DNA from: Reclinomonas americana ATCC 50394
Taxonomy: Eukaryota
Assembly: GCA_048213135.1 (NCBI GenBank)
Contig: PS015195.1
Coordinates: forward strand, 93,917-113,916
Length of the DNA: 20,000 bases
Direction of reading: 5' to 3'
In this document: piece by piece, positions 1 through 19,574 of the stretch
Numbering within the stretch: position 1 is the first letter of the stretch
How the letters are laid out: every line of letters starts with the position of its first letter
Translations under genes and position numbers: made by a program
Notes under the pieces: generated by a model
What the model was told of the DNA's origin: nothing
The model's input: only the letters and a program-made list of their open reading frames with translations
Database searches by the model: none

Positions 1-425
1 CCTCAAGTTCTTGCTCTTTGTGGCACAACTCGTGATACGCTGTCCCCTGCTGGCACGGGTGTGATGGCTCTCGTGTCCTCAAGTTCATGCTCTTTGTGAC
101 ACAACTCATGGTGCACCGTCCCCTGCTCCCTCTGCTGGTGCCGCTGTGATGCCTCTCGTACCCTGCAGTTCTTGTTCTTCGCGGCGCAGCTCGTTGCGCA
201 CTGTCCCCTGCTCCCTCTACTGGTACCGCTGTGATGCCTCTCGTACCCTGCAGTTCTTGTTTTTCGCGACACAGCTCATGGTGTACCGTCCCCTGCTCCC
301 TCTGCTTGTTCTGCTGTGATGCCTCTCATGCCCTCAAGTTCTTGCTCTTTGTGACACAACTCGTGATGCACTGTCGTGCCTGCTACCGTTGATGCGATGC
401 CTCTCGCGACTTGAAGTTCTTGTCA
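1..425. repeat. Degenerate ~85-bp tandem minisatellite, about 5 copies, probably intronic
   Basis: Units start at 1, 77, 162, 247, 332 and ~411 (cctcaagttctt/cctgcagttctt...cccctgctccctct...gtgatgcctctcgtac). The 85-bp period is not a multiple of 3. Confidence 0.85.
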
Positions 426-885: not shown

Positions 886-1756
886 ATGTCTGGCATTCCC
901 GCTCTGATTGACCCTGTGGGCCCGTAGTTGCGCTTGAGTGCTTCTTGTGTGCCTCACGCACACGCATGCGCTCAGAGAGTGTGTGTGAGAAGAAACACTT
1001 GATTAAGAATACGTGTCCGCGGAAGGCGAATAAAGAGAGAGAGAGAGAGAGAGAGAAGGAGGAACGGAGAGAGAGAGAGTGTGTGTGCGTGTGTATATGA
1101 GAGTCAGCGCATTTGTCAATGCGGTCAAACTCATTTCGTTCGGACACCTCGCTCTGTGCAGTGGTGGTCACTACGTGGCGACCGCCGGCACCATGTTGGG
1201 CCTTGACAACACTGTCATGTCGCAGTCGAACGTGAGTACACAGCACTCCCTGCTTTCGCTTGTTTGCGTGTACGTGTCACATTCTCTTACTTACCTCTGA
1301 TGAGGTGTTCCTTCTCTTGCTCTCTCTTTCTCTCTCTCGCTCGCTCTCCGCCTTCGCTTGTTTGCGTGTTCATGTTGACTTCCCTTGCAATTGCTCGTGT
1401 TCTCTCACATTCTCCGCCTTTCCCTGTCCTCGTGCTTCATGAGGTTTTCCTTCATTGTTCTCTCTCGCCTTCCCTTGCTAATGTTTCATGTCGCCTGCTT
1501 GCGCTTCCACTCGTGCCTTCTCTTGTTCATGTTCCGTTCTCCGGCTCGTGGTTGCTTCCTCCATTCTTTCTCCACCTTCACCTGACCTTGCCTGGTCCCC
1601 ACTCTCTTTTACCCATCTCATTCTCACCTATCGCCACCCCACCAGATCTACAACCCGGCCTACCAGCAGATGACGCTGTCGTCGGTGCAGAACCTGTCGA
1701 CTGGCTACGTCAACTTCCTGAAGGAGGGCGCCGCCGACGAAGCCGCCGGCTACTAA
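886..1756 (+). CDS. Small 3-exon hypothetical protein (~73 aa)
   Basis: Exons 886-926 (or 886-923), 1162-1231 and 1646-1756, joined by GT-AG introns with consistent phases. Protein: MSGIPALIDPVGP(Y)GGHYVATAGTMLGLDNTVMSQSNIYNPAYQQMTLSSVQNLSTGYVNFLKEGAADEAAGY*. Codons are coding-like amid CT/GA-rich introns. Confidence 0.6.
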
Positions 1757-1909
1757 GCGCATTCTAACACCTGAGCGGCTGTGTGTACAAGCCGCATTCT
1801 TGCCTCTCTCCCTACTCCCTTGTTCTCTCGCGCACTGGCGCGTTGAGTGAAGAGCGAGCTTGTCTGTCCCCTCCTCCATTTGCGCCTCTCGTTTCACTAC
1901 ACCCGCCCA

Positions 1910-2772
1910 TCAGCGAAACAGGGAGGAGAAAAAGTCGGCCACGGGGTTGGCGTTGGGCGGTGGTGGCCGTCCGCCCTGCAGCTGCTGCTGCTCTACACCC
2001 TCCGCCAACATGTCCAACATGTGCGGCGGCAGCAGCTCCAGATCGTCCGGGTGCACGCCGGCCAGCGCATTGTGCGTAAAGAGCGAGTTGTCGATCACTG
2101 TCAGGATGCCACCTGCACACCGCCACCACCACAACAGCACAAATGAGAGACCAGAGCTTCTCTACGAGCGATTCGCCGCCACGCGCTCACCTTCTTGATG
2201 AACGACCTTGTAGACATTGTACTGCGGCGACTCGGCCAGCTCATTGACGAGCGACTGACAGTTTTGCGCGGCATCCTCCAGCGCATCAATCTCACACAGC
2301 TCAACCAGCAGGCGGTCGGTCATCGCGGCCACCTGTCGATCACCAGTCAGCGTACAAAGATCCATGACCCGTCTCCTTGCTATTGCCTCACCTCCGGCAT
2401 CTTCCAGAACTCCTCTTGCCGCTGCAGCGCCACATCCATTAACCGCTCGACCACCAGCGGCAGCACCACGGCCGACTCGCTCTCCCCAACCATGTTTGTC
2501 TCCTCGGCAAAGATCGACACGCGCTCCTTGGTGGCAGGTCGCAACAGCGACTCGCGATGCAGGAAGCGCGCCACCCACAGCAGCAGCGGCGGCAAATCAC
2601 GCACAGCCGTCGTCAGCCTCGTGCGGAACTTGGCCTCGTCGCCCGCCACGGCCGCGCCCACCGCACAGGCCAGTGAGAGCGACGGAATCGGAGGCAGGTT
2701 GCGGGCCCGTCGGTAGGCGTCAATGTCCTCCAGCGCGCTCAAGTGGCCAGATTTGAGGCAGGCAAAGTCGAG
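1910..2772 (-). CDS. TCF25: TCF25/Rqc1 ribosome quality control protein, C-terminal exons
   Basis: Exons 2772-2392 (LDFACLKS...FWKMPE), 2332-2191 and 2112-1910 (...NPVADFFSSLFR*). Continues the LLT|LDFACL motif (cf. human LLLIDHLALR). The C-terminal FFSSL resembles FFRSL. Confidence 0.8.
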
Positions 2773-3014
2773 CTGCGCAGGGAGGGCCAGGAGAAGGGTG
2801 AGAAGACAAGAGAAAGAGAGAGAGAAGGGCAGCGCCGGCAGCTGGAGGCACACGATAATACAAGTGAATGAAGCACAAAGGGGACACAGAATAAGAGCAG
2901 CGAGAGGCGAGTAACATGGAGAAAGAGCGAGTGAACTACTGGGTCGACGGCGAGTTAGTGAAGCAGGACGGATGAGGGAGAAGGTAAGAGGAGGTCACAG
3001 TATGGTAAGGAGTG

Positions 3015-3116
3015 AGTTGGAGAAAGAAGGAAAGAAGGAAGGAAGGAAGGAAGGAAGGAAGAAGGAAAGAAGGAAGGAAGGAAGGAAGGAAGAAAGGAAG
3101 GAAAGAAAGAAAGAAA
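3015..3116. repeat. (GGAA)n/(GAAA)n microsatellite at a contig end
   Basis: Seen directly. It is complementary to the (TTTC)n tract at 4280-4365. Confidence 0.9.
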
Positions 3117-3802
3117 NNNNNNNNNNNNNNNNNNNNNNNNNNNNNNNNNNNNNNNNNNNNNNNNNNNNNNNNNNNNNNNNNNNNNNNNNNNNNNNNNNNN
3201 NNNNNNNNNNNNNNNNNNNNNNNNNNNNNNNNNNNNNNNNNNNNNNNNNNNNNNNNNNNNNNNNNNNNNNNNNNNNNNNNNNNNNNNNNNNNNNNNNNNN
3301 NNNNNNNNNNNNNNNNNNNNNNNNNNNNNNNNNNNNNNNNNNNNNNNNNNNNNNNNNNNNNNNNNNNNNNNNNNNNNNNNNNNNNNNNNNNNNNNNNNNN
3401 NNNNNNNNNNNNNNNNNNNNNNNNNNNNNNNNNNNNNNNNNNNNNNNNNNNNNNNNNNNNNNNNNNNNNNNNNNNNNNNNNNNNNNNNNNNNNNNNNNNN
3501 NNNNNNNNNNNNNNNNNNNNNNNNNNNNNNNNNNNNNNNNNNNNNNNNNNNNNNNNNNNNNNNNNNNNNNNNNNNNNNNNNNNNNNNNNNNNNNNNNNNN
3601 NNNNNNNNNNNNNNNNNNNNNNNNNNNNNNNNNNNNNNNNNNNNNNNNNNNNNNNNNNNNNNNNNNNNNNNNNNNNNNNNNNNNNNNNNNNNNNNNNNNN
3701 NNNNNNNNNNNNNNNNNNNNNNNNNNNNNNNNNNNNNNNNNNNNNNNNNNNNNNNNNNNNNNNNNNNNNNNNNNNNNNNNNNNNNNNNNNNNNNNNNNNN
3801 NN

Positions 3803-4139
3803 CCGCATGGCCAACGACTTGATATCTGCCGGTGATGTGGTTGCGCGAGTTCTCTACGCTGTGGAAGAGTTGCGTGCGGTGGTCGAGGGAAAAAAGGTGC
3901 GAGAATAAGTGAGTGATTGACGGAAATGCGTGGCGCGCAGGTGTGCCCACGTGCGCTTCCGCTGGAACGGCGCGTGTCGCATCGATCCGTCGGTGCCGGA
4001 GAACAGGACACTCTTCCGCGCTCTCAGCTTGCACATGCAGCTGTTGGGTCGACGAGGGTGCCACAGGACGGCGGCGGAGGTCGGCAAGGTGTTGTTCAGC
4101 CTGTGGCCGAGTCGCGACACGACGGGCATCTTGCTGACG
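3803..4139 (+). CDS. TCF25: TCF25 central exons on an inverted contig
   Basis: Exons 3803-3868 and 3941-4139 encode RMANDLISAGDVVARVLYAVEE-CAHVRFRWNGACRIDPSVPENRTLFRALSLHMQLLGRRGCHRTAAEVGKVLFSLWPSRDTTGILLT. This matches the TCF25 core (GACRLDYRRPENR...KRGCPRTALE). Confidence 0.85.
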
Positions 4140-4177
4140 GTGAGCACCCTGCTCGAGAAGGGTTTTATGTCGCTGGT

Positions 4178-4316
4178 CACACACACATACACACACACAC
4201 ACACTCACTCACTCATCACTCACTCACTCACTCACTCACTCACTCACTCACTTACTCACTCTTTCTCTCCCTCCTTCCCTCTTTCTTTCTTTCTTTCTTT
4301 CTTTCTTTCATTTCAT

Positions 4317-4365
<49 letters not shown>
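4178..4365. repeat. (CA)n, (CACT)n and (TTTC)n microsatellites, intronic
   Basis: Seen directly. Confidence 0.9.
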
Positions 4366-4557
4366 NNNNNNNNNNNNNNNNNNNNNNNNNNNNNNNNNNN
4401 NNNNNNNNNNNNNNNNNNNNNNNNNNNNNNNNNNNNNNNNNNNNNNNNNNNNNNNNNNNNNNNNNNNNNNNNNNNNNNNNNNNNNNNNNNNNNNNNNNNN
4501 NNNNNNNNNNNNNNNNNNNNNNNNNNNNNNNNNNNNNNNNNNNNNCGTGCTGCGCAG

Positions 4558-4877
4558 GCGGCCGCGGAAAGCGAGGCGGCGGGTGGTGGTCGACGAGGCG
4601 GTGGTTCTTCGTCGCGCGGCTTCCGTCACCGTGCGGGAAGCCTCGTCGCCGCGCCGGGTGCCGACTGGCCGCCGGTCACAGGCGTCGGTCTCGGCATGCA
4701 GGAGTCGATGGGAGCAGATGGACGACCGGTGTACGCACTGACGCACACCGCCGACTACCAACGACAGACTCGCCGCCTGCAAATGTGTTTGGCCCGCCAC
4801 GATCCGGAAATGGTGGGCGTTCTGTTCCGCGAGAATCCCTACCACCTGGAGACTCTCATGCAGCTGGCGGAGATGGA
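4558..4877 (+). CDS. TCF25: TCF25 internal exon (5' part) on an inverted contig
   Basis: Acceptor gcgcag at 4557. Encodes ...DWPPVTGVGLGM...HTADYQ...HDPEMVGVLFRENPYHLETLMQLAEM, which contains the TCF25 WP..GLSM and PYHxxxLxQL motifs. Confidence 0.85.
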
Positions 4878-5265
4878 NNNNNNNNNNNNNNNNNNNNNNN
4901 NNNNNNNNNNNNNNNNNNNNNNNNNNNNNNNNNNNNNNNNNNNNNNNNNNNNNNNNNNNNNNNNNNNNNNNNNNNNNNNNNNNNNNNNNNNNNNNNNNNN
5001 NNNNNNNNNNNNNNNNNNNNNNNNNNNNNNNNNNNNNNNNNNNNNNNNNNNNNNNNNNNNNNNNNNNNNNNNNNNNNNNNNNNNNNNNNNNNNNNNNNNN
5101 NNNNNNNNNNNNNNNNNNNNNNNNNNNNNNNNNNNNNNNNNNNNNNNNNNNNNNNNNNNNNNNNNNNNNNNNNNNNNNNNNNNNNNNNNNNNNNNNNNNN
5201 NNNNNNNNNAGGTTTGGTGTGAGGGTGTGCGACATACAAACATACACATTGACACATATACACAC

Positions 5266-6146
5266 CAGTGCCTTGCTGCCGAATATCCGCTTCAGCTCGC
5301 CGGAAGGATCGAGCAGCGCAGTGTTCACGGCCAGCAGTGCATCGACCGCGTCGTAAAACTCCCCGCTTCCCGCAGAGGACGCCGCGGAGGGCGCTGATGC
5401 CGATCCACTGGCACCCTCGCTCACCGCCAGTTTGGCCATCTCTCTGTTGGGAGGGGGTGAGGGCATGAAGGGAGAAGGGAGAAGGCGAAGGGAGGGGAGA
5501 GTGCAGAAGGGTGAAGGAAGGAAGGGAGATAGCGAGTGTAGTGACAGAGAGACGTGCAAGACCAAGATCCACGCGCTGCACAACGACAACTCAACTCCAA
5601 GAACGCTTCATCCTCATCGATCGGTTCACCGTCAGCCGTCGCAGTGGGCAACGGCGGCGGCGGCGCCGCCGCTGCCTTCTTTACCTTGCCCTTGCCCTTG
5701 TTCTTGTTCTTCTTCTTTTTGCTGCTGCTCTTCTGCTGCGTCGTTGCTCTCGTTGGCGCTGGTTGTTGCTGCACAGGCTCCCGACGCAACGCATCGGCCA
5801 CCGGCATATCATCATCATCGTCGTCATCGTCCTCTTCCTCTTCCTCACGCCGCTGCATCTCACCATCAGAGCCGCAAATAGTCGCCAATCACAATGCATG
5901 CACACACACCTGACCAAATCGCACCACGCGAATCACCTCTTCCCCCTCGTCATCATCATCATCATCATCGCTGCCAGCAGCCGCGCGTCTCACAGGCGGC
6001 GGACGCATCACACGCATTCCCATGTCATCATCATCTTCATCATCATCATCATCACCAGCTGCGCGCTTGCTCTTGGCCTTGCTCATGGCCAGAGACAGCG
6101 CAGGATCATCCTCGCCACGGAGCTTCCTCAGTGCGCGACGCGACAT
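5266..6146 (-). CDS. TCF25: TCF25/Rqc1 N-terminal exons
   Basis: Starts MSRRALRKLRGE (human TCF25 starts MSRRALRRLRGE). Exons 6146-5910 (or -5937), 5852-5596 (poly-acidic, KKKKNKNKGK) and 5443-5266 ending LDPSGELKRIFGSKAL (cf. LNPDTELKRYFG). Confidence 0.88.
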
Positions 6147-6508
6147 CGTGAAAGTGGACAATGCGCGAGACAGACGAGGCTCGCGGGGACTGAACTGGCG
6201 AACAAGGCAAACCCCGGGCGTGGAGGCAGTGCGGAAGGACATCATCACGACGTCGAATGAGCGACGTTGTCTGTCTCAACGCGGAAGCACCCACGTTTGC
6301 AGCTGCATTTCGGAGTGGACAATACCGGTTCTCGAGCCGCGTTCGTTGGCGCAAAGAGAGAGAGAGAGAGCGCTGTCAGTGTTGCAAACACTGCATTCGC
6401 TTGCTAACAGAGTGCTTGCTGAAGTCCCCTGGGTTTGCCTACCATCAAAGTGGACAGTGGCTCGCGCTGCCTTCCAAATCAGGCAATTTTGTGTCGATTG
6501 AGAACGCG
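6147..6508. promoter_or_regulatory. Putative bidirectional promoter between TCF25 and the CDK
   Basis: 362 bp between head-to-head ATGs. Inferred from position only. Confidence 0.45.
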
Positions 6509-8774
6509 ATGGCAGTGCGACATGCGGATGCCGGCGGTCGCGCCTCCAAGTTCCTCAAGACGGAGAAGATTGGTGAGGGCACCTATGGTGTGGTGTACAA
6601 GGCAAGAAATGAGGTGCGTGCTTGTTTGTGATCGCACACTCGGGACACGCACGCGCTCACCTTGTTTGTGTGTGTGCTCTTTGTCTCTCTCTCTCTGTGC
6701 TGATAGGAGACTGGTGAGTACGCGGCACTAAAGCGCATTCGACTGGAGTCCGAAGAAGAAGGTTTGCCGAGGCACTTTGGTCGACTGCCTTTTCACTCTC
6801 TCTCTCACACACTCTCTCTTCCTCTCACACACACTCTCTCCCTATCTAATAGGTGTACCATGCACGGCCATTCGAGAGATTGCTCTGTTGCGCGAATTGA
6901 AGCACCCGAACATTGTGCGGTGCGTGCCACCATCGACATTGGTTGTCTCTCTGTCTCTTGTGTTGTCTCTGACACTCTCTCTGTGTGTGCCTCTGTGTGT
7001 GCGCAGGTTGCATGATGTGATTCACACGGACAAGAAGTTGACACTGGTGTTCGAGTTCCTCGACTATGATCTGAAAAAATTCTTGGATATGCACGAGGGC
7101 GACTTGCCACCACACATTATCAAGGTGTGTGTGAGAGAGAGAAGGGTCCTCTCTGTCTTCTGCTGCTGACATTTGCGTNNNNNNNNNNNNNNNNNNNNAG
7201 GGAGGGGGTGAGGGAGGGAGGGAAGGGGGGAGGGTGAGGGAGGGAGGGAGGGGGGAGGGAGGGAGGGAGGGACGGGGAGCGAGAGAGGGAGAGGGAGCGC
7301 GCGCATGCGAGATTGTTAGCGACTAGGGAGGCGCACAAGCAGGGAAGCAGTGATGTGGCAAGTGAAGAGTGCGGGGGTGGGTGTGGTAGAAACAGCGAAG
7401 CGGCACCGGTGGAAGGTGGAGAGCGTGTATGATGCACGAGGGTGTTTGCGTGTGAGAATGAGAAGGACGACTGGCGACGAGGGAGAAAAAGAGAAGAAAT
7501 GCGGAAAGCAGGGAGAGTGATGCGAGAAAGAGTGGCCGAAAGCAACTCTGAGAGACGGAGAGACACAGCAAGCTGAACTGATGCTTTGACGAGAAGACAG
7601 TAGCGTTGTGTCGCTGTCTCTCGTGTCGCTGTCTCTCTCGTTGCTGTCGCTCTGTATCTCTGTCGCTCTCGTCGCTGTCGCTCTCCCTCGCTGTCGCTCT
7701 CCCTCGCTGTCGCTCTCCCTCGCTGTCGCTCTCCCTCGCTGTCGCTCTCCCTCGCTGTCGCTCTCCCTCGCTGTCGCTCTCGTCGCTGTCGCTCTCGTCG
7801 CTGTCGCTCTCGTCGCTGTCACTCTCGTCGCTGTCGCTCTCGTCGCTGTCGCTCTCCTCGCCGTCGCTCTCCTCGCCGTCGCTCTCCTCGCCGTCGCTCT
7901 CCTCGCTGTCGCTCTGTGTCGCTGTCGCTCTCGTCGCTCTTGTCGCTGTCGCTGTTGCTCTTGTCGCTGTCGTGTGTCGCTGTCACTGTGTAGTTGTTAT
8001 TCTGTCGCTGTGTCTCTCCCCCAATCGCTCATGATGCCTCCTTTCCCTCGCGCGCTCTAATCTCTCCTCCCCTCTCCCTCGCGCAGCAAACGATGGAACT
8101 CAAACTGGCCGACTTTGGTCTCGCCCGTGCGTTTGGCATTCCCGTGCGCAAGTACACACATGAAGTTGAGTCGTCGTCGACAATGTTTGATATCATTTGT
8201 CACTCACCGCGCGCTGCAGGTCGTCACGTTGTGGTATCGACCACCGGATGTGCTTCTCGGCTCACAAAAGTACGGCACTCCTGTTGGTGAGTCGAGCGGG
8301 CATGATTTGGTGCCTCATCTCTGTCAAAGAGCTCGTGGGTGTTGCCAACTTGCAGATAGCACGTCCTAGTTATTTCTCTCTCTCTCTCTCTTAATCTCTC
8401 TCCTTTCTCCCTTTCTCACTCTCTCCTCTCCCTCCCCAGATGTCTGGTCCATTGGCTGCATCTTTGCGGAAATGATAACAGGCCGGCCGCTCTTCGCGGG
8501 CAAGACGGAGATGGATCAGCTTTTGCGCATTTTCAAGTTTCGTTGCTGCTCCCCCCACTGTATTCCCTCTCTCCATCACTCACGCACCCGCTGTGCAGGA
8601 TTCTCGGCACCCCCACGGAAGAAGTGTGGCCATCCATGCCCGAGATGCCACACTACCAGTCGCTATGCGGTCTGCCCGAATTCCAAGAAGTGTACCCACC
8701 GCAACCACTTGAGCGCTACGTGACGCGGCTGGAGGGCGACCCGAATGGACTCGATCTGTTGACGGTGTGTGGGG

Positions 8775-8850
<76 letters not shown>

Positions 8851-8939
8851 TAGTAGTAGTAGTAGTGGTGTGTAGTAGTAGTAGAGAGTAGAGAGAGAGA
8901 GAGAGAGAGAAGAACGAACGAACGAACGAACGAACGAAC

Positions 8940-8979
<40 letters not shown>

Positions 8980-9618
8980 ACGAACGANNNNNNNNNNNNN
9001 NNNNNNNNNNNNNNNNNNNNNNNNNNNNNNNNNNNNNNNNNNNNNNNNNNNNNNNNNNNNNNNNNNNNNNNNNNNNNNNNNNNNNNNNNNNNNNNNNNNN
9101 NNNNNNNNNNNNNNNNNNNNNNNNNNNNNNNNNNNNNNNNNNNNNNNNNNNNNNNNNNNNNNNNNNNNNNNNNNNNNNNNNNNNNNNNNNNNNNNNNNNN
9201 NNNNNNNNNNNNNNNNNNNNNNNNNNNNNNNNNNNNNNNNNNNNNNNNNNNNNNNNNNNNNNNNNNNNNNNNNNNNNNNNNNNNNNNNNNNNNNNNNNNN
9301 NNNNNNNNNNNNNNNNNNNNNNNNNNNNNNNNNNNNNNNNNNNNNNNNNNNNNNNNNNNNNNNNNNNNNNNNNNNNNNNNNNNNNNNNNNNNNNNNNNNN
9401 NNNNNNNNNNNNNNNNNNNNNNNNNNNNNNNNNNNNNNNNNNNNNNNNNNNNNNNNNNNNNNNNNNNNNNNNNNNNNNNNNNNNNNNNNNNNNNNNNNNN
9501 NNNNNNNNNNNNNNNNNNNNNNNNNNNNNNNNNNNNNNNNNNNNNNNNNNNNNNNNNNNNNNNNNNNNNNNNNNNNNNNNNNNNNNNNNNNNNNNNNNNN
9601 NNNNNNNNNNNNNNNNNN

Positions 9619-9688
<70 letters not shown>

Positions 9689-9730
9689 TCTCTACTACTC
9701 TCGTCGTGTTCTCTCTCTCTCTCTCTCCTC

Positions 9731-9781
<51 letters not shown>

Positions 9782-10095
9782 TTTCCTGTTTATTTTACCT
9801 GCCTTTCTTTCGCTCGCATGGGTCTTTGTTGTCGATTGTCGCTCACTCGACGGCTTCCTTCTCTCCCTTTCCTCCCCCTTCCCTCATTCCTCCCCTTCCC
9901 TCATTCCTCCCCCTTCCCCACACACAGCGCATGCTCCGATACGAACCCGCCGACCGCATCACGGCCAAGGACGCGCTGGAGCACCCGTTCTTTGATGATT
10001 TGGTGGGTGCCGGCAGCGGTGCACCGTACGTGCCGCCCGGCTCCTTCACCGTCGGAGGCGCCAGTTCATCGGCGGCGGCCGGCGGCGGTGTGTAA
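6509..10095 (+). CDS. CDK5: Cyclin-dependent kinase, CDK5-like with PCTAIRE motif (one exon missing)
   Basis: Exons 6509-6613, 6707-6761, 6853-6919, 7007-7124, [missing HRDLKPQN exon], 8087-8164, 8220-8286, 8440-8536, 8599-8764 and 9928-10095. Motifs [65 protein letters not shown] and [13 protein letters not shown]. Closely resembles Dictyostelium Cdk5/Crp as I recall it. Confidence 0.92.
7605..8012. repeat. Intronic minisatellite built from GCTGTC/GCTCTC units (15-18 bp period)
   Basis: Repeats of ctcgctgtcgctctccct and gtcgctgtcgctctc seen directly. Confidence 0.9.
8779..8987. repeat. Compound microsatellite (GA)n-(TAG)n-(GAAC)n-(GAC)n
   Basis: Seen directly at the 5' end of the last CDK intron. 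Confidence 0.9.
9619..9780. repeat. (CT)n microsatellite
   Basis: Seen directly in the 3' part of the last CDK intron. Confidence 0.9.
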
Positions 10096-10486
10096 ACTCG
10101 AGCCACTGAGTCGTGCGGATGTTTTTTTAGAGCGAGCGAATTGCGAAGGAGTTGCGAGTGCAGTGTACGGCATGTATGCAGCACACACGTGTGCGTGGGG
10201 TGGAGGGTTTCGTAAGCTACGACTGCCCGCTGATGAGAAATTGCCTTGTACGTGTTCGAATTCACTTGCGTTCGACTTCCTTTCCACCTCTCGCAAGAAT
10301 TCGACTCTGGTCGGTTATGCACGGGAGGCAGGCAACCTAGTGCACATTCCTGCCTTCCCTTTGGGCGGGAAGAGGAAGCCGACCTCGTGAACTGCACCTC
10401 GGACGGACGGTCGCGTCGAAAAACATAACCGTTTTGCAATTCAAGCATTGTGTGAGAGAAGAAGTGACGCAGTACCAACAAAAGCA

Positions 10487-12185
10487 ATGGGTGTCGAAGC
10501 AAGCAGCAGTTGCGCCTCTCCCACTTCCTTCCTCCGCTCGTACCTCCTCCCTGCTCACCCTGTCGCCCTCCTCAGTGACCTTTTCCGGCGGTGTGCGTGC
10601 CACTCCGCCTCTGACTGGCGACAACACACTCGGCCCCTCCACTGGAGGCCTCGTCAGTGGCATGGGCATGCTGGAGCCACAACCAAGCACTCTGCCGTGC
10701 CGCATGGGCGAGCTCGGGTGCGAGTGGTCGGGCATGAATGAGACGGAGGTGCGTTTGACAAAGGCACGCGTGCTCCCCCGTTCCAGTATGTGCGATTGAC
10801 ACCTCCCTCTCTCTCTCCCCCGCTGCGACTATAGCTTGGTGCCCATGAGAAGACGTGCGCGTATGTTCGTGCGGAGCGCCATTTTGAGCGACTTGTACGA
10901 CAGGTGTGTTTGTCGCGATCGGACCTCCGTTTCTCCTCCTCCTCGTTTCCCCTCTCATTTCGTGCTATGCAGTTGTACCAGTGTGAGACCACGATCGAGG
11001 AACTGCGCGGAGCACTGGCCTCACAAACGCGAGAGGTAGGGCAAAGCAAGGGCCATGAGTGTGTGTGTTTTGTTTTTAGTGCGTGTATGTGTGTGCGGAC
11101 TCACCTCATGCACAGCCAAGCTCATCAGTCCAGCCCGCTCACATTGTGCTCACAGCCGCGGATGCCTAGAGTTATCTCTCGCTGTGTGTGTATTATGCCA
11201 CGGGGATTGCATCTTTTTTCGTCGCCCATCACCAACGTGGTTCTCATTGAGTGCTGTGCCCCCCCTTTCTCTCTCTCCCCCCTCCTCTCGTTTCCCTCTG
11301 TGCCATGTGCGTGTGCCGCTCTGTTGCACGACGCATGCAGCTTCACGTTCTGCGACGATTGGCCAAGGAGCAAGATCGCCGTTCGGATCAACTCGAGCAG
11401 CAGCTGGGTGACTTGCAGCAGACGGTGTGCGAGTTGACGTCGGCTGCCGCGGCGACGAATGCTGCGCCCGGCGCCACCACCACCACCGCCGCCGAGCCAC
11501 ACTGCTGCAGTGGCGGCTCGTGCCACGCACACGTGCACGACCACGAGCACGTGCAACCACTCGTCGCCTCTGCATCGCCGGCAATCGCCAGTCGCGTTGA
11601 GTACCAGCTGCCGCTGGCGCCACCACCTGTGCAGCCGGCGTACGTGTCGCCACCAGTGGCACGGGCCGCTCCCCGTCGCTCGCGCGTGACGGTGGACACG
11701 GAGAGCACCACCGACATTATGGCGGCCTTCAACGGCGACTCGTCACCCATTTCCGCATCATCGGCACCGGCCTCAGGCTCCGGCTCGCCGACCAGCATTT
11801 TGGTTCTCGGCTCCCCACTGCCGTCGCCGTTCGGCTCCCCCAGCTCGTCCCCCGGCTCCTCCCCAACTTCGGCAGCACAGGCCGCCCGGACACCCTTCGT
11901 GTGCCGCAAGTGTCACGAGACCATTGACGGTCGCACACCACCCGGTCCGTGCCGCTTCCACCCCGGAGCACAGCTGAAGAATGTTGCGCGTCGATTGCGA
12001 TTTGGATGAAGGTCTCTCCATATATGTGCGCTCACTCCTTCTCTTTTGCACGGATGCAGTACGGACCACCGTACTGGCAGTGCTGCGGACAGGGTGTGGA
12101 CTCGCCGGGCTGCCGCGCCATGGAGCAGCATGCGCCGCCACGGCAACCCTCGAACCGACCGCGCACGGTGCGCATCGGTCAGTGA
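10487..12185 (+). CDS. Hypothetical protein (~364 aa): TRAF/SIAH-like Zn finger, coiled coil, Ser/Pro-rich linker, CHORD/BTK-like Cys-His domain
   Basis: Exons 10487-10508 (tentative), 10576-10748, 10835-10903, 10973-11035, 11341-11982 and 12060-12185, all GT-AG and in phase. Spliced motifs PCRMGELGCEWSGMNETELGAHEKTCAY and CRKC-x12-CRFHPG-x9-YWQCCG-x6-GC-x5-H. Confidence 0.7.
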
Positions 12186-12433
12186 GGATGATCCCGGTGT
12201 GTGTGTGTGTGGAGGGGAGAAAAAGACAGGGAGACAAGGCGGGCGAGACAGAAACCTACGCCGCCTCTTGTTTATGAAAACGGCAATGTAAACTGTAGAT
12301 TGTGTGGTATTGAGAATGTGCGCATCTGCCCGTGTCCGAAGACTGCACCGCATCTTTTCAATCTCTCGCTTTCCGCGCGCACAAACCACTCCCCCTCCAC
12401 CGCATCTTTTGCTTCCCTTCCCTTCCCTCCCTC

Positions 12434-14958
12434 ATGTCGACCCCGAAGAAGAGCCCACGCGCCCCGCGCAATGCCGATGCTGCCTCCGGTTCCGCTGGTG
12501 CAGCTCCGGATGCCACCGCCTCACTGCTCGCACAACCCTCCATGGCCTCGCAAGTGAGCACGGCAATGACTGCCGCGCGACTGGAGGCCGCCTTGCGCCC
12601 GGTCATCGCCTTCCGCGATGAGCAGCAGGCGGCCGCCGAGCGCATCATCTTTGAGACCATGCCGCAGAGGGTGGTGGAGCTCACGGAGCTGTTGGTATGT
12701 GGTGCACAGTGTGCGTGTGTGTGTGCGTATGTGTGGAGTGTGACTCATGTGGGGGCAGGCGGAGCGCTTCACCGATGAGACGGGCAAGACGGTGATTGTT
12801 AGCATGGAGGTTTGTTCGAATGTTCGCAAAGAGGAGAGAGGGGGAGGGGAAGGAGAAGGGGGAGGGAGGTAGGGAGCAACGCAGTGATGGTGTCGTCGTT
12901 GATGGTGTGGTTGAACAAGCATGAGCAGGTGGCAGCAGCAGTGATTTCAACACTGTGCACGCTCTCTATCTCTCTCTCTCTCTCCGAGATGTGATGCATT
13001 TCATCCTCTCTCTGTCTGTCTGTGTTTCTGCCTTGTTTATCTGTCTGTCTGTCTACCTGCCTGCCCCTCTCTATCTCTGTCTCGCGCGCTGTCTTTTTTG
13101 TTCATCTCTGTCTGTATTCTGTGTTCGTGTCTGTCTGTTTTGCTCATCTCCCTCCCTTCGCCCTGCACTTCGATGGTCTCTTTATCTGCATGCTGCGTCT
13201 CCTTTTTCTCTATCGCACCCAACCCCATTTACGTTTCAGCCTGGCACTCAATCCACCGTCAGCTTTCGTTCACTCTCTCACACGTCCGCAGTCACTCCTC
13301 CTTCCTTCTCTCCCCTCTCTCTCTTCCCTTTCTCCTTCCTTGCTTGCTGATCCCTTCACCTCCATCTGGAGTCTCACTCACCTCGCGTGCACGCACAGGA
13401 ATCGACCGAGAAGCTGGCGACGAACGAGGTGAAGTGGAGTTCACACCTGCTGCTGCTGCTTCTCCCCACAAAGTACTCACCCTTGTGCGTTCGTGCGCTT
13501 GCAGAAAGTCGTCGAGTTGCTGGAGCTGCTCAAGCGGCACCTTCTCGAGTTTGTGGCCTGCCTGCTGCCCGTCAAGACGTGGATCACGCTCAACATTCCG
13601 CGCATTGGTTTGTTTCCCGGTCGGGAGTCCGCGCCGTCGTCTTCGTCTGTTGCTGACACAGTGCGTGCGTGCAGAGGACGGCAACAACTTTGGTGTCGAG
13701 ATCCAACAGGAGACCGTTGCCGAGCTCAGCGCTGGCGAGGAGAGGTGAGTGGAGGGAGGAAGGGGAAGGGGAGAGGAAGAAGGGAGAGGGAGGGGAAGGA
13801 GGAGGAGGAGGAGGAGGAGATGGAGGAAAAGGAGGAAGAGGAAGGGGAAGGGAAGACGATTTGGAAGGGGACGATGGCGAAGACGGAGCAGGACGTGGAG
13901 GAGAAGGAGGAGCAAGAAAGAGGAGGAGAGGAAGGGGTAAGGGAAGATAAGAAGGGGAAAGGAAGACGATCTGGAATGGGAGGGAAAGGAGGAGCAGGAG
14001 GTGGAGGAAAAGGAGGAGAGAGAGAGGATAAGAAGGGGATGAGAAGACGATTTGAAAGGGGATGATGGCGAAGACAGAGCAGGAGGCAGAGCAGGAGGCG
14101 GAGGAGGAGGAGAGGAAGGAGATGGTGCAGGAGGAGAAGGAGAACAGAAGGGGGAGGAAGGGGGAGAGGAGAGAGGAGCAGGAAGACGTCAATAAGAAGA
14201 GGAAAAGGGAGAAGAAAGGCAACGACGCAGAGGAGGATGGAGAATACGAGCAAAAGGAGGAGGTGGAGGAAAGATGAAAAGCAGAGGAGATGAGGTAGGA
14301 GCTGGCGCAGGAGGAGGAGAAAAGAAGAAGGAAGAGGGAGAGAGAGAGAGGAGAGCGGAGCATGAAAGGGGAGAAGACGACGGCGAGTGTGTGAAGAAGA
14401 AGGACAACAACGCTGAGGAGGATGAGGGGAAGGAAAGTAAGATCAAAAGAAGGAGAAAGAGGAACGGAGAAGGAGGACGAGGAGTGAGAAAAGCAGCAGT
14501 ACTCGAACGAGAAGCGGTGGGCGGAAGAATCTGGCACATACTCACCTCCCGCCTACAGCGCCACCGACCTGATGGCCACCAACACCGGCTACTACCTCGC
14601 ACGCGCCAACATTGTGCGCAAAGTACGCAAGCACCCCGAGATCGAGGACTACCGCCGCGCAGTTGCGAAAAACCACACACACACACACACACACGCACAC
14701 ACACACAATTGTAGCAATGCTGACTCGCTGCCGATCCACAAGGTGTACGAGCTCGACGAGCGACAGTACCAGAACATCCGCTCGGCCATTATCGACCTGC
14801 GCACCGACTACGCAGTTGCGCATACGCTCACACCATCATTGCCACCAAATCACTCGCAGCTCACTCGCGCGACACAGACCATGGTCGACATGATCACGAA
14901 GAACCTGGAGCGCATCCGCACGCCACGCACCAACGCGCACATGGCCACAATGTTCTGA
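12434..14958 (+). CDS. PSME3: Proteasome activator PA28/REG (11S regulator, PSME3-like)
   Basis: Exons 12434-12694, 12759-12791, 13399-13428, 13505-13607, 13675-13744, 14559-14661, 14743-14814 and 14878-14958. Activation loop WITLNIPRIEDGNNFGVEIQQETVAEL, plus YYLARANIVRKVRKHPEIEDYRRAV and DMITKNLERIRTPR. Confidence 0.92.
13750..14520. repeat. Purine-rich low-complexity intron with an internal duplicated block
   Basis: (GGA/GAA)-rich. The block gaagacgatttg(g)aagggga(c/t)gatggcgaagac is repeated at ~13852 and ~14043, with a partial copy at ~13962. Confidence 0.75.
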
Positions 14959-15045
14959 AACACACACAACATAGTGAAATTTACAGAAACGCATTGAAAA
15001 TTGAAAGTGCGGCAATCCAACACACTCTTTACTTCTTTCTCTCAC

Positions 15046-15162
15046 ATGTCCTTGACGCACGCACAACGAGTGACGCGCCTGTACCGCGCCTCGCTGAAGA
15101 ATGCCCTCTCGTGGTGCATCAATCGTGACTTGTTCATGGAGGAGGCCACAAAACTGCGCGCG
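15046..15162 (+). CDS. NDUFB9: NADH dehydrogenase 1 beta subcomplex subunit 9 (B22, LYR family), exon 1
   Basis: MSLTHAQRVTRLYRASLKNALSWCINRDLFMEEATKLRA contains the LYR motif and SW. Donor gtgaga at 15163. Confidence 0.88.
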
Positions 15163-15172
15163 GTGAGAGAGA

Positions 15173-15223
<51 letters not shown>

Positions 15224-15942
15224 GAGAGAGAGAGAGAGAGAGTGTGTGTGTGTAGAGAGAGAGAGAGAGNNNNNNNNNNNNNNNNNNNNNNNNNNNNNNN
15301 NNNNNNNNNNNNNNNNNNNNNNNNNNNNNNNNNNNNNNNNNNNNNNNNNNNNNNNNNNNNNNNNNNNNNNNNNNNNNNNNNNNNNNNNNNNNNNNNNNNN
15401 NNNNNNNNNNNNNNNNNNNNNNNNNNNNNNNNNNNNNNNNNNNNNNNNNNNNNNNNNNNNNNNNNNNNNNNNNNNNNNNNNNNNNNNNNNNNNNNNNNNN
15501 NNNNNNNNNNNNNNNNNNNNNNNNNNNNNNNNNNNNNNNNNNNNNNNNNNNNNNNNNNNNNNNNNNNNNNNNNNNNNNNNNNNNNNNNNNNNNNNNNNNN
15601 NNNNNNNNNNNNNNNNNNNNNNNNNNNNNNNNNNNNNNNNNNNNNNNNNNNNNNNNNNNNNNNNNNNNNNNNNNNNNNNNNNNNNNNNNNNNNNNNNNNN
15701 NNNNNNNNNNNNNNNNNNNNNNNNNNNNNNNNNNNNNNNNNNNNNNNNNNNNNNNNNNNNNNNNNNNNNNNNNNNNNNNNNNNNNNNNNNNNNNNNNNNN
15801 NNNNNNNNNNNNNNNNNNNNNNNNNNNNNNNNNNNNNNNNNNNNNNNNNNNNNNNNNNNNNNNNNNNNNNNNNNNNNNNNNNNNNNNNNNNNNNNNNNNN
15901 NNNNNNNNNNNNNNNNNNNNNNNNNNNNNNNNNNNNNNNNNN

Positions 15943-16007
<65 letters not shown>

Positions 16008-16039
16008 CCTCCCTCCCTCCCTCTCCCTTGCCACGCAAC

Positions 16040-16145
16040 TCTTGTAGAGATCAGGATGCGAGAAATCAATCAACTTGCGCTCTCCATCGGCCAACAGCGC
16101 CGCAGCTGTCGCCGGATCCCGCGCCTTGGCATTCGCACGGAACTC
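16040..16145 (-). CDS. NDUFB9: NDUFB9 exon 2 on an inverted contig
   Basis: tttag|EFRANAKARDPATAAALLADGERKLIDFSHPDLYK-A|gttgcg. Phases match exons 1 and 3. Confidence 0.85.
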
Positions 16146-16557
16146 CTAAAAGAAAGAGAGAAGAGTCAGAGAGAGAGAAAGAGTGTGCGCCATGTCAACC
16201 ATCGACCTCACTCTCTCACTCGCGCACACACACGTGCATGCAGAGTGAGTGAGAGTGAGTGCATGTGCGTACGTAGTGAGAGAGAGAGAGAGCAGAGAGG
16301 AAAGGTGAACAAGACTGTCTCACACGCACACTCTCACACACACACTCTCTCGCCCTCTCACTCTCTCTCTCTCTCTCTCTCACTCACCACACACTCTCTC
16401 TTACACACACACATTCACACACTCTCTTGCTCTCTCACTCTCTCTCTCTCACGTGAGTGACTGCGTGTGAGAGAGACGAGTGCCTCACACACACACTCTG
16501 ACACACACCTTCACTCTCTCTCTCTCTTTCACACACACACACATTCTTCCTTCTTCC

Positions 16558-16606
<49 letters not shown>

Positions 16607-17279: not shown

Positions 17280-18350
17280 GACTGCAGGGAGGCGTTGCAT
17301 GCATGCGTGAGTGAGGAGTCTGTTCGTCATGAAGCCTCGCGCATCTGTTCTCTCCTTGAGTGTGCAAGTGAAGGAGTGAGGGAGAGAGTGCACATGTGGT
17401 GCAGCCCAGAGTCTCTGCAGCACCCAGTCTCTTCTCTCCTCGTCTCTCCTTGGCTGTGCAAGTGAAAGGGAGAGGGAGAGAGTGTGCATGCGCTCGCAGC
17501 AGCAGACTGCGGCACCTCGTTGCGTTCACAGAGTCCTCAGTCTCTTCTCTCCTCGTCTCTCCTTGAGTGTGCAAGTGAAAGGGAGAGGGAGAGACAGAGT
17601 CTGTGGCACCTCTTTGGATTCACATAGTCCTCAGTCTCTTCTCTCCTCGTCTCTCCTTGGGGTGCAAGTGAAAGAGAGATGGAGAGCGTGCACATGTGGC
17701 GCAGCAGCAGACTGCGACACCTCGTTGGGTTCACAGAGTCCTCAGTCTCTTCTCTCATTTCCTTGAGTGTGTTGCCGAGAGAGAAGAGAGATGCAGCCCA
17801 GCGAATACGCTCGCAGCAGCAGACTGCGGCGCAGTCTCTTCTCTCCTCGTCTCTCCAGGTGTGCAGGTGAAGCCCAGAGTCTCCACTCGCAGCGAAAGAT
17901 TCGTTGGATTCGCAGAGTCGTCAGTCTCCTTCCTTCTCTCCTTTCCTTGAGTGTGCACCCGAGAGAGAAAGAGAGAGATCAAGAGTGCGCGCTTCAAATT
18001 GTGCAGTCCAGGGTATCCGCCCGCAGCAACAGAGTGGGATTCCCAGTGTGTTTTGCTCTCCTCGTCTCTCCTTGAGTGTTCCTGCATGCGATGCAGGCCA
18101 GGATATCTCGTGCGACCTCTCTGAGGGTTCACAGTGTGTCTTGTGTGTCTGCTCTCTTCCCATGGAGTGTGACGCAGGCAAGGATACCGCCCTCGTTTCA
18201 CACGTCTGTTCTCTCTCGCTATCTTCTCCTTGAGCGTGTGTCTGAGGGATAGAGCATGCGATGCAGGTCACTGTGTTTCTCAGCGAGAGCACGTGACCCT
18301 TCGTTGGAGTTTCTCAGAGCCTCGCACGTCTTTCCGCTCTCCTTGAGAGA
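17280..18350. repeat. Degenerate ~90-115-bp tandem repeat in NDUFB9 intron 2
   Basis: Core cagtctcttctctcctcgtctctccttgagtgtgcaagtgaa recurs at ~17345, 17425, 17538, 17632, 17743, 17832, 17922 and 18055. It alternates with cgcagcagcagactgcg and ttcacagagtcct motifs. Confidence 0.8.
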
Positions 18351-18471: not shown

Positions 18472-18581
18472 CACCCGAGGCCGTCGGCGGCAGCAAGTAC
18501 ATGCGCAACCCGGTGCCGTACACCGAGGTGGTGCGGAATCACCCCGACCCCTCAGCAGGCGGCGCTCACCACCACCACTAA
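18472..18581 (+). CDS. NDUFB9: NDUFB9 exon 3 (terminal)
   Basis: cacag|(T)PEAVGGSKYMRNPVPYTEVVRNHPDPSAGGAHHHH*. Completes the HPDxYxxPxxxGGSKxxRNP signature of B22. Confidence 0.85.
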
Positions 18582-18667: not shown

Positions 18668-19486
18668 TCACGTCTTGGCCTTTTGATACACGACCTCGGC
18701 CTGCCCCTCGCGCATTGCACACACGCGCGCGGCCATGAACAGGTAGCTGCTCAATCTGCAAACAGCATGAGCGCGCAAGGCCACACTACGACAGGCGCAC
18801 AGACAGACAGACCTATTGAGGTACGCCTGCACCTCCACCTCCACATCACCCTCGCGCACCAACGGCGTCACATGCCGCTCCGCGCGTCGCGCCACTGCTC
18901 GCGCCACATGCAAATACGCGCTGGTGAATCCGCCGCCGGGCAGGATGAAATTCTTCAACGGCGGCACCTCCTCCTCCAACGCATCTGTCCACCTCTCCAC
19001 GAGCTGCGTGTGCTCGCCGCCCCGCGCAAAACACGCGCGCTGCACCTTGTCCGGCGTGCTCCGGGCGCTTCGCAGGGGCGTCGCCACCGCCGAGCCAATG
19101 TCCAGCAGCCGCGATTGAACTTCGACGAGCTGCGGGTGCACGTCGAGGTGGCCTCCGTTGAGACAATGCGCGGCGGCCACACTGATGATGCACAATGAGA
19201 GAGCGCAGGACGCCAAATGGGAGAATCGTCACACGCGCGCGCGTACCCAATGACCGAGTTGAGCTCGTCGACATCGCCCAGTGCCTCAAAGTGCACATCG
19301 TCCTTGCCACGTCGCTCACCGTTGAAGAGACCACTGGTGCCTGCACCACACACACACAAAAAAATGAACTTTTTTTCGCCTGTGGAGAGGATAGCGCGCT
19401 CTCTCACGCGCACCCTTATCGCCTGTGCGCGTGTAACCGACAAAGAAGCGCCGCTGCAAAGGCCGCACAAGACGCAGCATCATCAT
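18668..19486 (-). CDS. MMAB: Mitochondrial cob(I)alamin adenosyltransferase (PduO type)
   Basis: Exons 19486-19414 (MMMLRLVRPLQRRFFVGYTRTGDKG, Arg-rich targeting-like start), 19340-19247 (TSGLFNGERRGKDDVHFEALGDVDELNSVIG), 19181-18813 (FILPGG...LHVARAVARRAER...YLNR) and 18755-18668 (LSSYLFMAAR...*). Confidence 0.93.
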
Positions 19487-19574
19487 CAAAGTGTGAGTTC
19501 ATCGGTGCAATGGATCGCGTGCTTACTTCAATTGGGGTCGTCCATGTGGCGTCGCCTGTCGTTCTTTGGGCACA

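Follow-up and report, generated by a model that had tools for sequence, protein, structure and literature searches.

How does a spliceosome place the 5′ cut of an intron when the exon in front of it does not end in G? The question is raised by a stretch of 20,000 nucleotides (nt) of Reclinomonas americana ATCC 50394 (assembly GCA_048213135.1, contig PS015195.1, positions 93,917 to 113,916 of the forward strand), hereafter called the window, in which each exon with A or T as its last base precedes an intron that begins with GTT and carries its conserved G one base later than usual. These introns are referred to here as the offset class, and the introns that follow exons ending in G or C as the canonical class. 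Uncoupling of U1 binding from the choice of the cut site is well established, but the sites examined for it are a few rare ones in humans. Roca and Krainer, as cited by Tan et al. (2016; PMC4856993) and in the review PMC9311317, are said to have described, in 2009, human 5′ splice sites at which U1 pairs in a register offset by a single base. The offset layout, rare in humans, looks routine in the window.

Donor sequence and the last exon base

The donor table was compiled from rebuilt gene models and holds 35 donors from this single 20-kb window. Some donor choices were made by eye, and several canonical donors border assembly gaps, with their introns incomplete. The last exon base was G in 24 cases, C in one, and A or T in ten (nine A and one T), and the offset class supplies 10 of the 35 donors; of the 11 exons without a final G it takes 10. 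After the A- or T-ending exons, T at +3 and G at +6 were found in 10/10 and G at +5 in 0/10. Among the exons ending in G or C, GTT..G was found in 0/25, with G at +5 in 23/25 and G at +6 in 3/25. The association of GTT..G with the last exon base is strong over all donors (Fisher p = 5.4e-9) and persists when the two tentative sites at 926 and 10508 are removed (8/8 vs 0/25, p = 7e-8). The two best-modelled genes, those for a CDK and for PA28, by themselves give 4/4 vs 0/11 (p = 1/1365). The offset introns start with GTTGCG (7/10), GTTGAG (2/10) or GTTTCG (1/10); all ten begin with GT, and the complete ones end with AG. The sole C-ending exon ends at 1231 and is followed by GTGAGT. Three G-ending exons are followed by GTTTG[CT] (first intron bases 6762, 12810 and 13608), with T at +3 and +4 and G kept at +5, so that the normal register, too, admits T at +3.

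A first-pass annotation of this DNA had named ten donors of this kind, and all ten are present in the sequence where it put their first intron base, on either strand. Its claim that exons ending in A or T all use GTT was borne out. Its tally of 34 donors, 23 of them after G, was one short on both counts relative to the rebuilt table, which also holds the C-ending exon. It was right that no G-ending exon uses GTTG, and it had counted two rather than three G-ending exons with GTTT. The sequence rule and its tie to the last exon base are well supported in the window and unproven as a property of the genome.

The motif is also specific within transcripts. Over the 13,829 called bases of the sense strand of genes, AGTT[GT][CA]G occurs in nine copies, and 9/9 are donors that lie at frame-compatible exon ends; elsewhere there is one antisense copy and one between genes. 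Canonical-looking A/GT[GA][ACT]G[TC] was used in 0/23 cases and G/GT[GA][ACT]G[TC] in 15/28.

Sites are named here by the last exon base, the first intron base being the next one on that strand. The exact junctions of five introns (3868, 8164, 8536, 14661 and 14814) are fixed by gap-free alignment with homologues. The first of these is GA/GTTGCGT (3868..3875, plus strand) in TCF25, on a small, probably flipped contig, where an intron of 72 nt begins (3869-3940). It is the sole in-frame GT nearby, and the spliced product runs gap-free across 3868/3941 against the TCF25 homologue P0001, a metagenomic protein that was one of two matches when representative proteins were searched with a TCF25 exon; the clusters of the two matches supplied no names, and an Atlas search yielded nothing informative. 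A canonical-looking AAG/GTGCGAG at 3890-3903 (last exon base 3896), 28 bases into the same intron, was considered as the donor and rejected, since it does not keep the frame of the conserved TCF25 exon; the weaker-looking A/GTTGCGT at 3868 appears to be chosen over it. Two further sites lie on the plus strand in the CDK gene. At AA/GTTGAGT (8164..8171; intron 8165-8219, 55 nt), the exons on either side of 8164/8220 meet at residues 160/161 of chain 1v0b_A with no gap. At AA/GTTTCGT (8536..8543; intron 8537-8598, 62 nt), again the sole in-frame GT nearby, the exons flanking 8536/8599 cover residues 184-214 and 216-261 of the same chain, and the split codon corresponds to residue 215.

The remaining two fixed junctions are in PA28, also on the plus strand. 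At CA/GTTGCGA (14661..14668), with an intron of 81 nt that ends in AAG (14662-14742), the exons flanking 14661/14743 meet at residues 205/206 of the PA28gamma chain 7yqd_A with no gap. At CA/GTTGCGC (14814..14821), with an intron of 63 nt (14815-14877), those flanking 14814/14878 meet at residues 229/230 of 7yqd_A, again without a gap. A GT-AG cut at 14814 yields Thr, as at Thr230 of PA28gamma, and a cut one base downstream yields Ala; the codon comparison proposed for this junction in the first-pass annotation came out in favour of GT-AG. Both PA28 introns have lengths divisible by three (81 and 63 nt) and hold no in-frame stop, and the read-through translation can therefore be aligned to 7yqd_A. 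Retention of either one keeps the frame open (open reading frame 14488-14958). A search for longer homologous proteins, with the PA28 read-through and CDK exon 8 as queries, found none.

Two sites were placed by reading frame. GA/GTTGAGT in TCF25 (5589..5596, minus strand; last exon base 5596; intron 5595-5444, 152 nt) has other in-frame GTs nearby, which carry no donor-like motif, and the flanking protein is of low complexity and gave no homologue alignment across the junction. AT/GTTGCGC (11982..11989, plus strand; intron 11983-12059, 77 nt) is the sole T-ending case. It is the sole in-frame GT nearby, and the unspliced reading meets a stop at 12007-12009; a Pfam search gave no family match that would set the spacing across this junction. 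The site in NDUFB9, GA/GTTGCGT (16033..16040, minus strand), lies on a probably flipped contig; its intron extends into an assembly gap, and 18472 on the plus strand is the start of the next exon. The exon ending at 16040 matched NDUFB9 chains at E = 0.46 and 0.85 and the next exon matched other NDUFB9 chains at E = 0.8, and the spacing there is only roughly supported because no chain is common to both matches. Six sites had at first been regarded as fixed by conserved protein spacing, a view that held for the five listed above and not for NDUFB9.

Two donors are tentative. TA/GTTGCGC (926..933, plus strand) in a small unnamed gene opens an intron at 927-1161 and is in frame with the next exon. 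A possible tandem donor is seen at 923-933, where C/GTAGTT lies three bases upstream of A/GTTGCG, both being in frame. CA/GTTGCGC (10508..10515, plus strand) would end a possible first exon of 22 nt in a Cys/His-rich gene (intron 10509-10575); it is in frame with an ATG at 10487, and an in-frame alternative, G/GTGTCGA, lies 18 bases upstream.

In overall make-up, introns of both classes resemble ordinary U2-type ones. A branch-like YTSAC motif is present in the last 45 nt of 8/9 offset introns vs 10/15 canonical ones. A minor-class (U12-type) identity was rejected, as all ten start with GTT[GT][CA]G and lack the extended donor motif of the minor class. An origin from introners or another repeat was likewise rejected. 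Seven of the nine complete offset introns were aligned, the two longer than 150 nt being left out, and their mean column identity was 41%, with only G1, T2, T3, G6, the terminal AG and one scattered C invariant. Since they are alike only at their ends, they are not copies of one element.

Register of the motif and its probable reader

A scoring matrix was built from the 25 canonical donors and applied to the ten offset sites. In the normal register these sites total -72.9 bits. When the register is moved one base downstream and the column that faces U1 C8 is omitted, they total +75.4 bits (7.5 per site), and canonical donors scored leave-one-out with the same +1 column omitted average 6.1 bits per site. 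With every column kept, the downstream register still gives +40.1 bits. The first-pass suggestion that offset sites match the local consensus one base downstream is confirmed by these scores, according to which both classes fit a single motif, (A)G[G/T]TNNG[T/C]. A G that would face U1 C9 is present in 34/35 donors. The same register accounts for the link with the last exon base, as that base sits, in the offset class, at canonical position -2, where A is the commonest base (14/25).

We consider it somewhat better than even, at a probability of about 0.55, that two classes of GT-AG, U2-type introns share this 5′ motif, are paired alike by U1 and have their cut set by GU. When the third base of the motif is G, the intron would begin at that G, as ..AG/GTNNGT (25/35 donors). 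When it is T, the only available GT lies one base earlier and the intron would begin there, as ..A/GTTNNG(T/C) (10/35 donors). The 5′ terminus of the U1 small nuclear RNA (snRNA), standard or lineage-specific, would pair with the motif identically in both classes, which in the offset class would put the U1 helix one base downstream of its usual place relative to the cut. The cut would then be fixed later by GU, through the step that involves U6, U5 and Prp8. U1 is presumably the reader of the motif, and the cut presumably falls at GU and not one base downstream. If a standard U1 5′ end is assumed, the ten sites form a mean of 6.8 base pairs in the shifted vs 4.0 in the canonical register, and the shifted register has more pairs at 9/10 sites, with 8536 a tie (5 vs 5).

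Several observations weigh against this reading. The best duplex of the ten sites with the standard U1 5′ end has a mean of -1.8 kcal/mol, compared with -7.6 for the 25 canonical donors and -2.7 (standard deviation 2.4) for 1014 GT sites of the plus strand, and the shifted helix, taken without gaps, comes to a mean of +0.7 kcal/mol and splits into three pieces of 2 bp. Since the offset sites do no better than random GT sites, pairing with a standard U1 alone fails to explain the specificity of the motif. Position +5 is C in 8/10 offset sites, a mismatch in the shifted register, and the canonical counterpart of that position, +4, has C in just 5/25. Copies of the GTT motif preceded by T within transcripts serve as donors in 1/4 cases. 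Finally, the next exon starts with G at 3868, 8164, 8536 and 14661, so that moving the cut by one base downstream at each end would leave the mRNA the same. The shift in U1 register put forward in the first-pass annotation agrees well with the sequence statistics (bits and number of pairs) and draws no support from predicted duplex energy. The shifted-U1 reading is the best fit to the sequence, and the weak predicted duplex and the preference for C at +5 keep it short of being shown. The missing specificity would come either from proteins or context, or from a U1 of this organism, or a second U1, unlike the standard one.

The second of these sources, taken as an explanation in its own right, is that a dedicated or co-evolved snRNA reads the offset class in the same register, be it a second U1 isoform (with, for example, a changed base opposite +2) or a lineage-specific U1 5′ end that pairs with A/GUUGCG by Watson-Crick rules. 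The failure of standard U1 to distinguish offset sites from random GT sites argues for it, as does the strong preference for GTTGCG (7/10), which points to a specific complement. A hypothetical U1 in which C8 is replaced by A would strengthen pairing at the ten sites (mean -4.8 kcal/mol) and weaken it at the canonical ones (-3.4). There is also a precedent, in that the U1 5′ ends of Entamoeba and Mastigamoeba are reported by Roy and Bowser (bioRxiv 10.1101/2022.06.08.495308) to have co-evolved with atypical donors. On the other hand, Rfam at gathering thresholds gave 0 matches over the whole window, and even with the C8-to-A change the offset sites would stay weaker than canonical sites are with standard U1. 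The same source also describes Thecamonas and Mamiellales, which have a standard U1 despite a donor preference for C at +4. On this evidence a dedicated snRNA is possible, though doubtful.

An alternative that leaves U1, and later U6, in normal pairing is that GU(U)GCGU is read with one U flipped out, so that the site acts as GUGCGU. With the +3 U removed as a bulge, the canonical matrix gives the ten sites a total of +31.6 bits, and the bulge would bring G+6 and U+7 into their usual pairing with U6. Registers with a bulge at +2/+3 have been proven for human sites, as reported by Tan et al. (2016; PMC4856993). In this register, however, the last exon base faces U1 C9, and G would be expected there, as in 24/25 canonical donors, whereas the offset sites have A or T in 10/10; G/GTTG donors, in turn, number 0 among the 24 G-ending exons. 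The shifted model also scores 8.5 bits higher even with T opposite C8 penalised. The chance that a bulged U accounts for the class is accordingly small.

A slightly smaller chance still is assigned to an artefact of small sample size or model building, in which case the rule would dissolve genome-wide. The sample is indeed only 35 donors, two of the ten offset sites are tentative and two were placed on frame, and the canonical set includes the incomplete introns at assembly gaps. Against this stand the five junctions fixed gap-free by homologues, the clean split within the CDK and PA28 genes, and the placement of all nine sense-strand copies of the motif at frame-compatible exon ends. A true cut one base downstream at both ends, with introns that start with TT and end one base past AG, is very improbable, because, although 34/35 exons would then end in G and four sites would yield the same mRNA either way, the 3′ ends would become AGG, AGA, AGT or AGC with no common dinucleotide, an in-frame TAG would be created at 926, and 14814 would encode Ala in place of the Thr shared with PA28gamma.

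Extension of the shared-motif reading to a lineage-wide donor code with two registers is a tentative step and on balance unlikely to be correct in full. In such a code, the cut in about a quarter of introns would lie one base upstream of the place expected from the U1 helix, a G paired with C9 would be all but required, and GU would fix the cut on its own; the offset class may be served by a second isoform of U1 or by a U1 whose 5′ end is altered (for example, in the base facing +2). The figure of a quarter of introns in the lineage, which was part of the initial claim, may hold and rests on 35 donors in one 20-kb window.

Genes and other features of the window

The window is a gene-dense, intron-rich stretch of eukaryotic scaffold with a G+C content of 57% of called bases and 3097 N, and its contig breaks fall at microsatellites. 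Rebuilt models were obtained for several genes. The small unnamed gene occupies 886-1756 on the plus strand, with exons at 886-926, 1162-1231 and 1646-1756, and a Pfam search gave no family for it. TCF25 lies between 6146 and 1910, mostly on the minus strand, and its exon downstream of the 3868 junction matches Pfam Tcf25 at E = 1e-17. The CDK gene spans 6509-10095. Its translation at 6853-6919 contains the cyclin-binding helix motif in a PCTAIRE-like version, the best PDB matches of several of its exons are apicomplexan CDKs, and one of its introns holds a minisatellite of 15 bp in about 24 copies (7611-7972). The Cys/His-rich gene extends over 10487-12185. PA28 (12434-14958) is 771 nt long as spliced and in frame throughout; its intron at 13745-14558 (814 nt) consists almost entirely of purine-rich, GGA/GAA-like sequence on the sense strand.

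NDUFB9 was modelled with exons at 15046-15162, 16145-16040 (minus strand) and 18472-18581, and the exon ending at 16040 matches Complex1_LYR at E = 0.0013. A candidate gene for a cobalamin adenosyltransferase-like protein lies near 18690-19486 on the minus strand, as judged from its translation by eye and without library comparison, and the start of one further gene was modelled at 19540. Three small, gap-bounded contigs (3803-4365, 4546-4877 and 15943-16606) hold exons of TCF25 or NDUFB9 in reverse orientation relative to the other exons of the gene, with the right order along the protein preserved; these contigs were most likely flipped during scaffolding. At the edge of the window (1-375) there is a tandem repeat with a unit of 85/170 bp and 75-80% matches. 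Repeated units of about 110 bp were seen by eye at 17300-18100 and are absent from the output of Tandem Repeats Finder at score 150.

Relation to known splicing systems

An organism in which a rule-like offset class takes in a large share of the introns would be a natural system in which to ask what determines the cut site once U1 has left, what amount of pairing U1 really requires, and whether snRNAs and donor motifs co-evolve. There would also be a practical consequence, since gene finders with a single donor matrix would score offset sites very poorly (-73 bits over ten) and could, in a genome of this kind, model roughly one intron in four wrongly. A full-text search of the literature, supplements aside, found no lineage reported to have a major A/GTT donor class, and an earlier description is possible; reports on F7 IVS6+1G>T and on tunicates turned out to have no bearing on the question.

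U12-type introns resemble the offset class in being a second, rarer class beside the major one. They differ from it in sequence, as the offset introns open with GTT[GT][CA]G and show the usual YTSAC...AG at their 3′ ends. GC-rich protists with donors that prefer GTGCG have been described, and in this preference they are like the canonical class of the window; in Entamoeba and Mastigamoeba, by contrast, one atypical consensus replaces the standard one, whereas in the window two classes, one base out of step with each other, occur side by side within single genes (Roy and Bowser, bioRxiv 10.1101/2022.06.08.495308, for the protists).

The U1 registers with a bulge or an asymmetric loop, as presented in PMC4856993, have in common with the window a noncanonical geometry between U1 and the 5′ splice site at GT-AG introns, and a U bulged at +2/+3 would make GTTGCG read as GTGCG. 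They differ in that no tie to a last exon base other than G is predicted, and in the lower score they obtain here. The canonical preference for G that goes with bulge registers is not kept at the offset sites, where exon position -1 is A in nine cases, T in one, and never G.

A close counterpart is provided by the human shifted-register sites, at which U1 is described as pairing one base downstream, with GU fixing the cut at a later step (Tan et al., 2016, PMC4856993). The likeness extends to several features: GU is kept at the cut, U is at +3, the conserved G is at +6 and not +5, and more U1 pairs form one base downstream. There are two differences. With respect to strength, the sites of the window, mostly GTTGCG, have a far weaker predicted helix than the human test oligonucleotide described in that paper. 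With respect to frequency, the validated noncanonical U1 registers of humans together account, by the figures given there, for about 1.5% of 201,541 sites, as against 10 of 35 donors for the offset class of this window.

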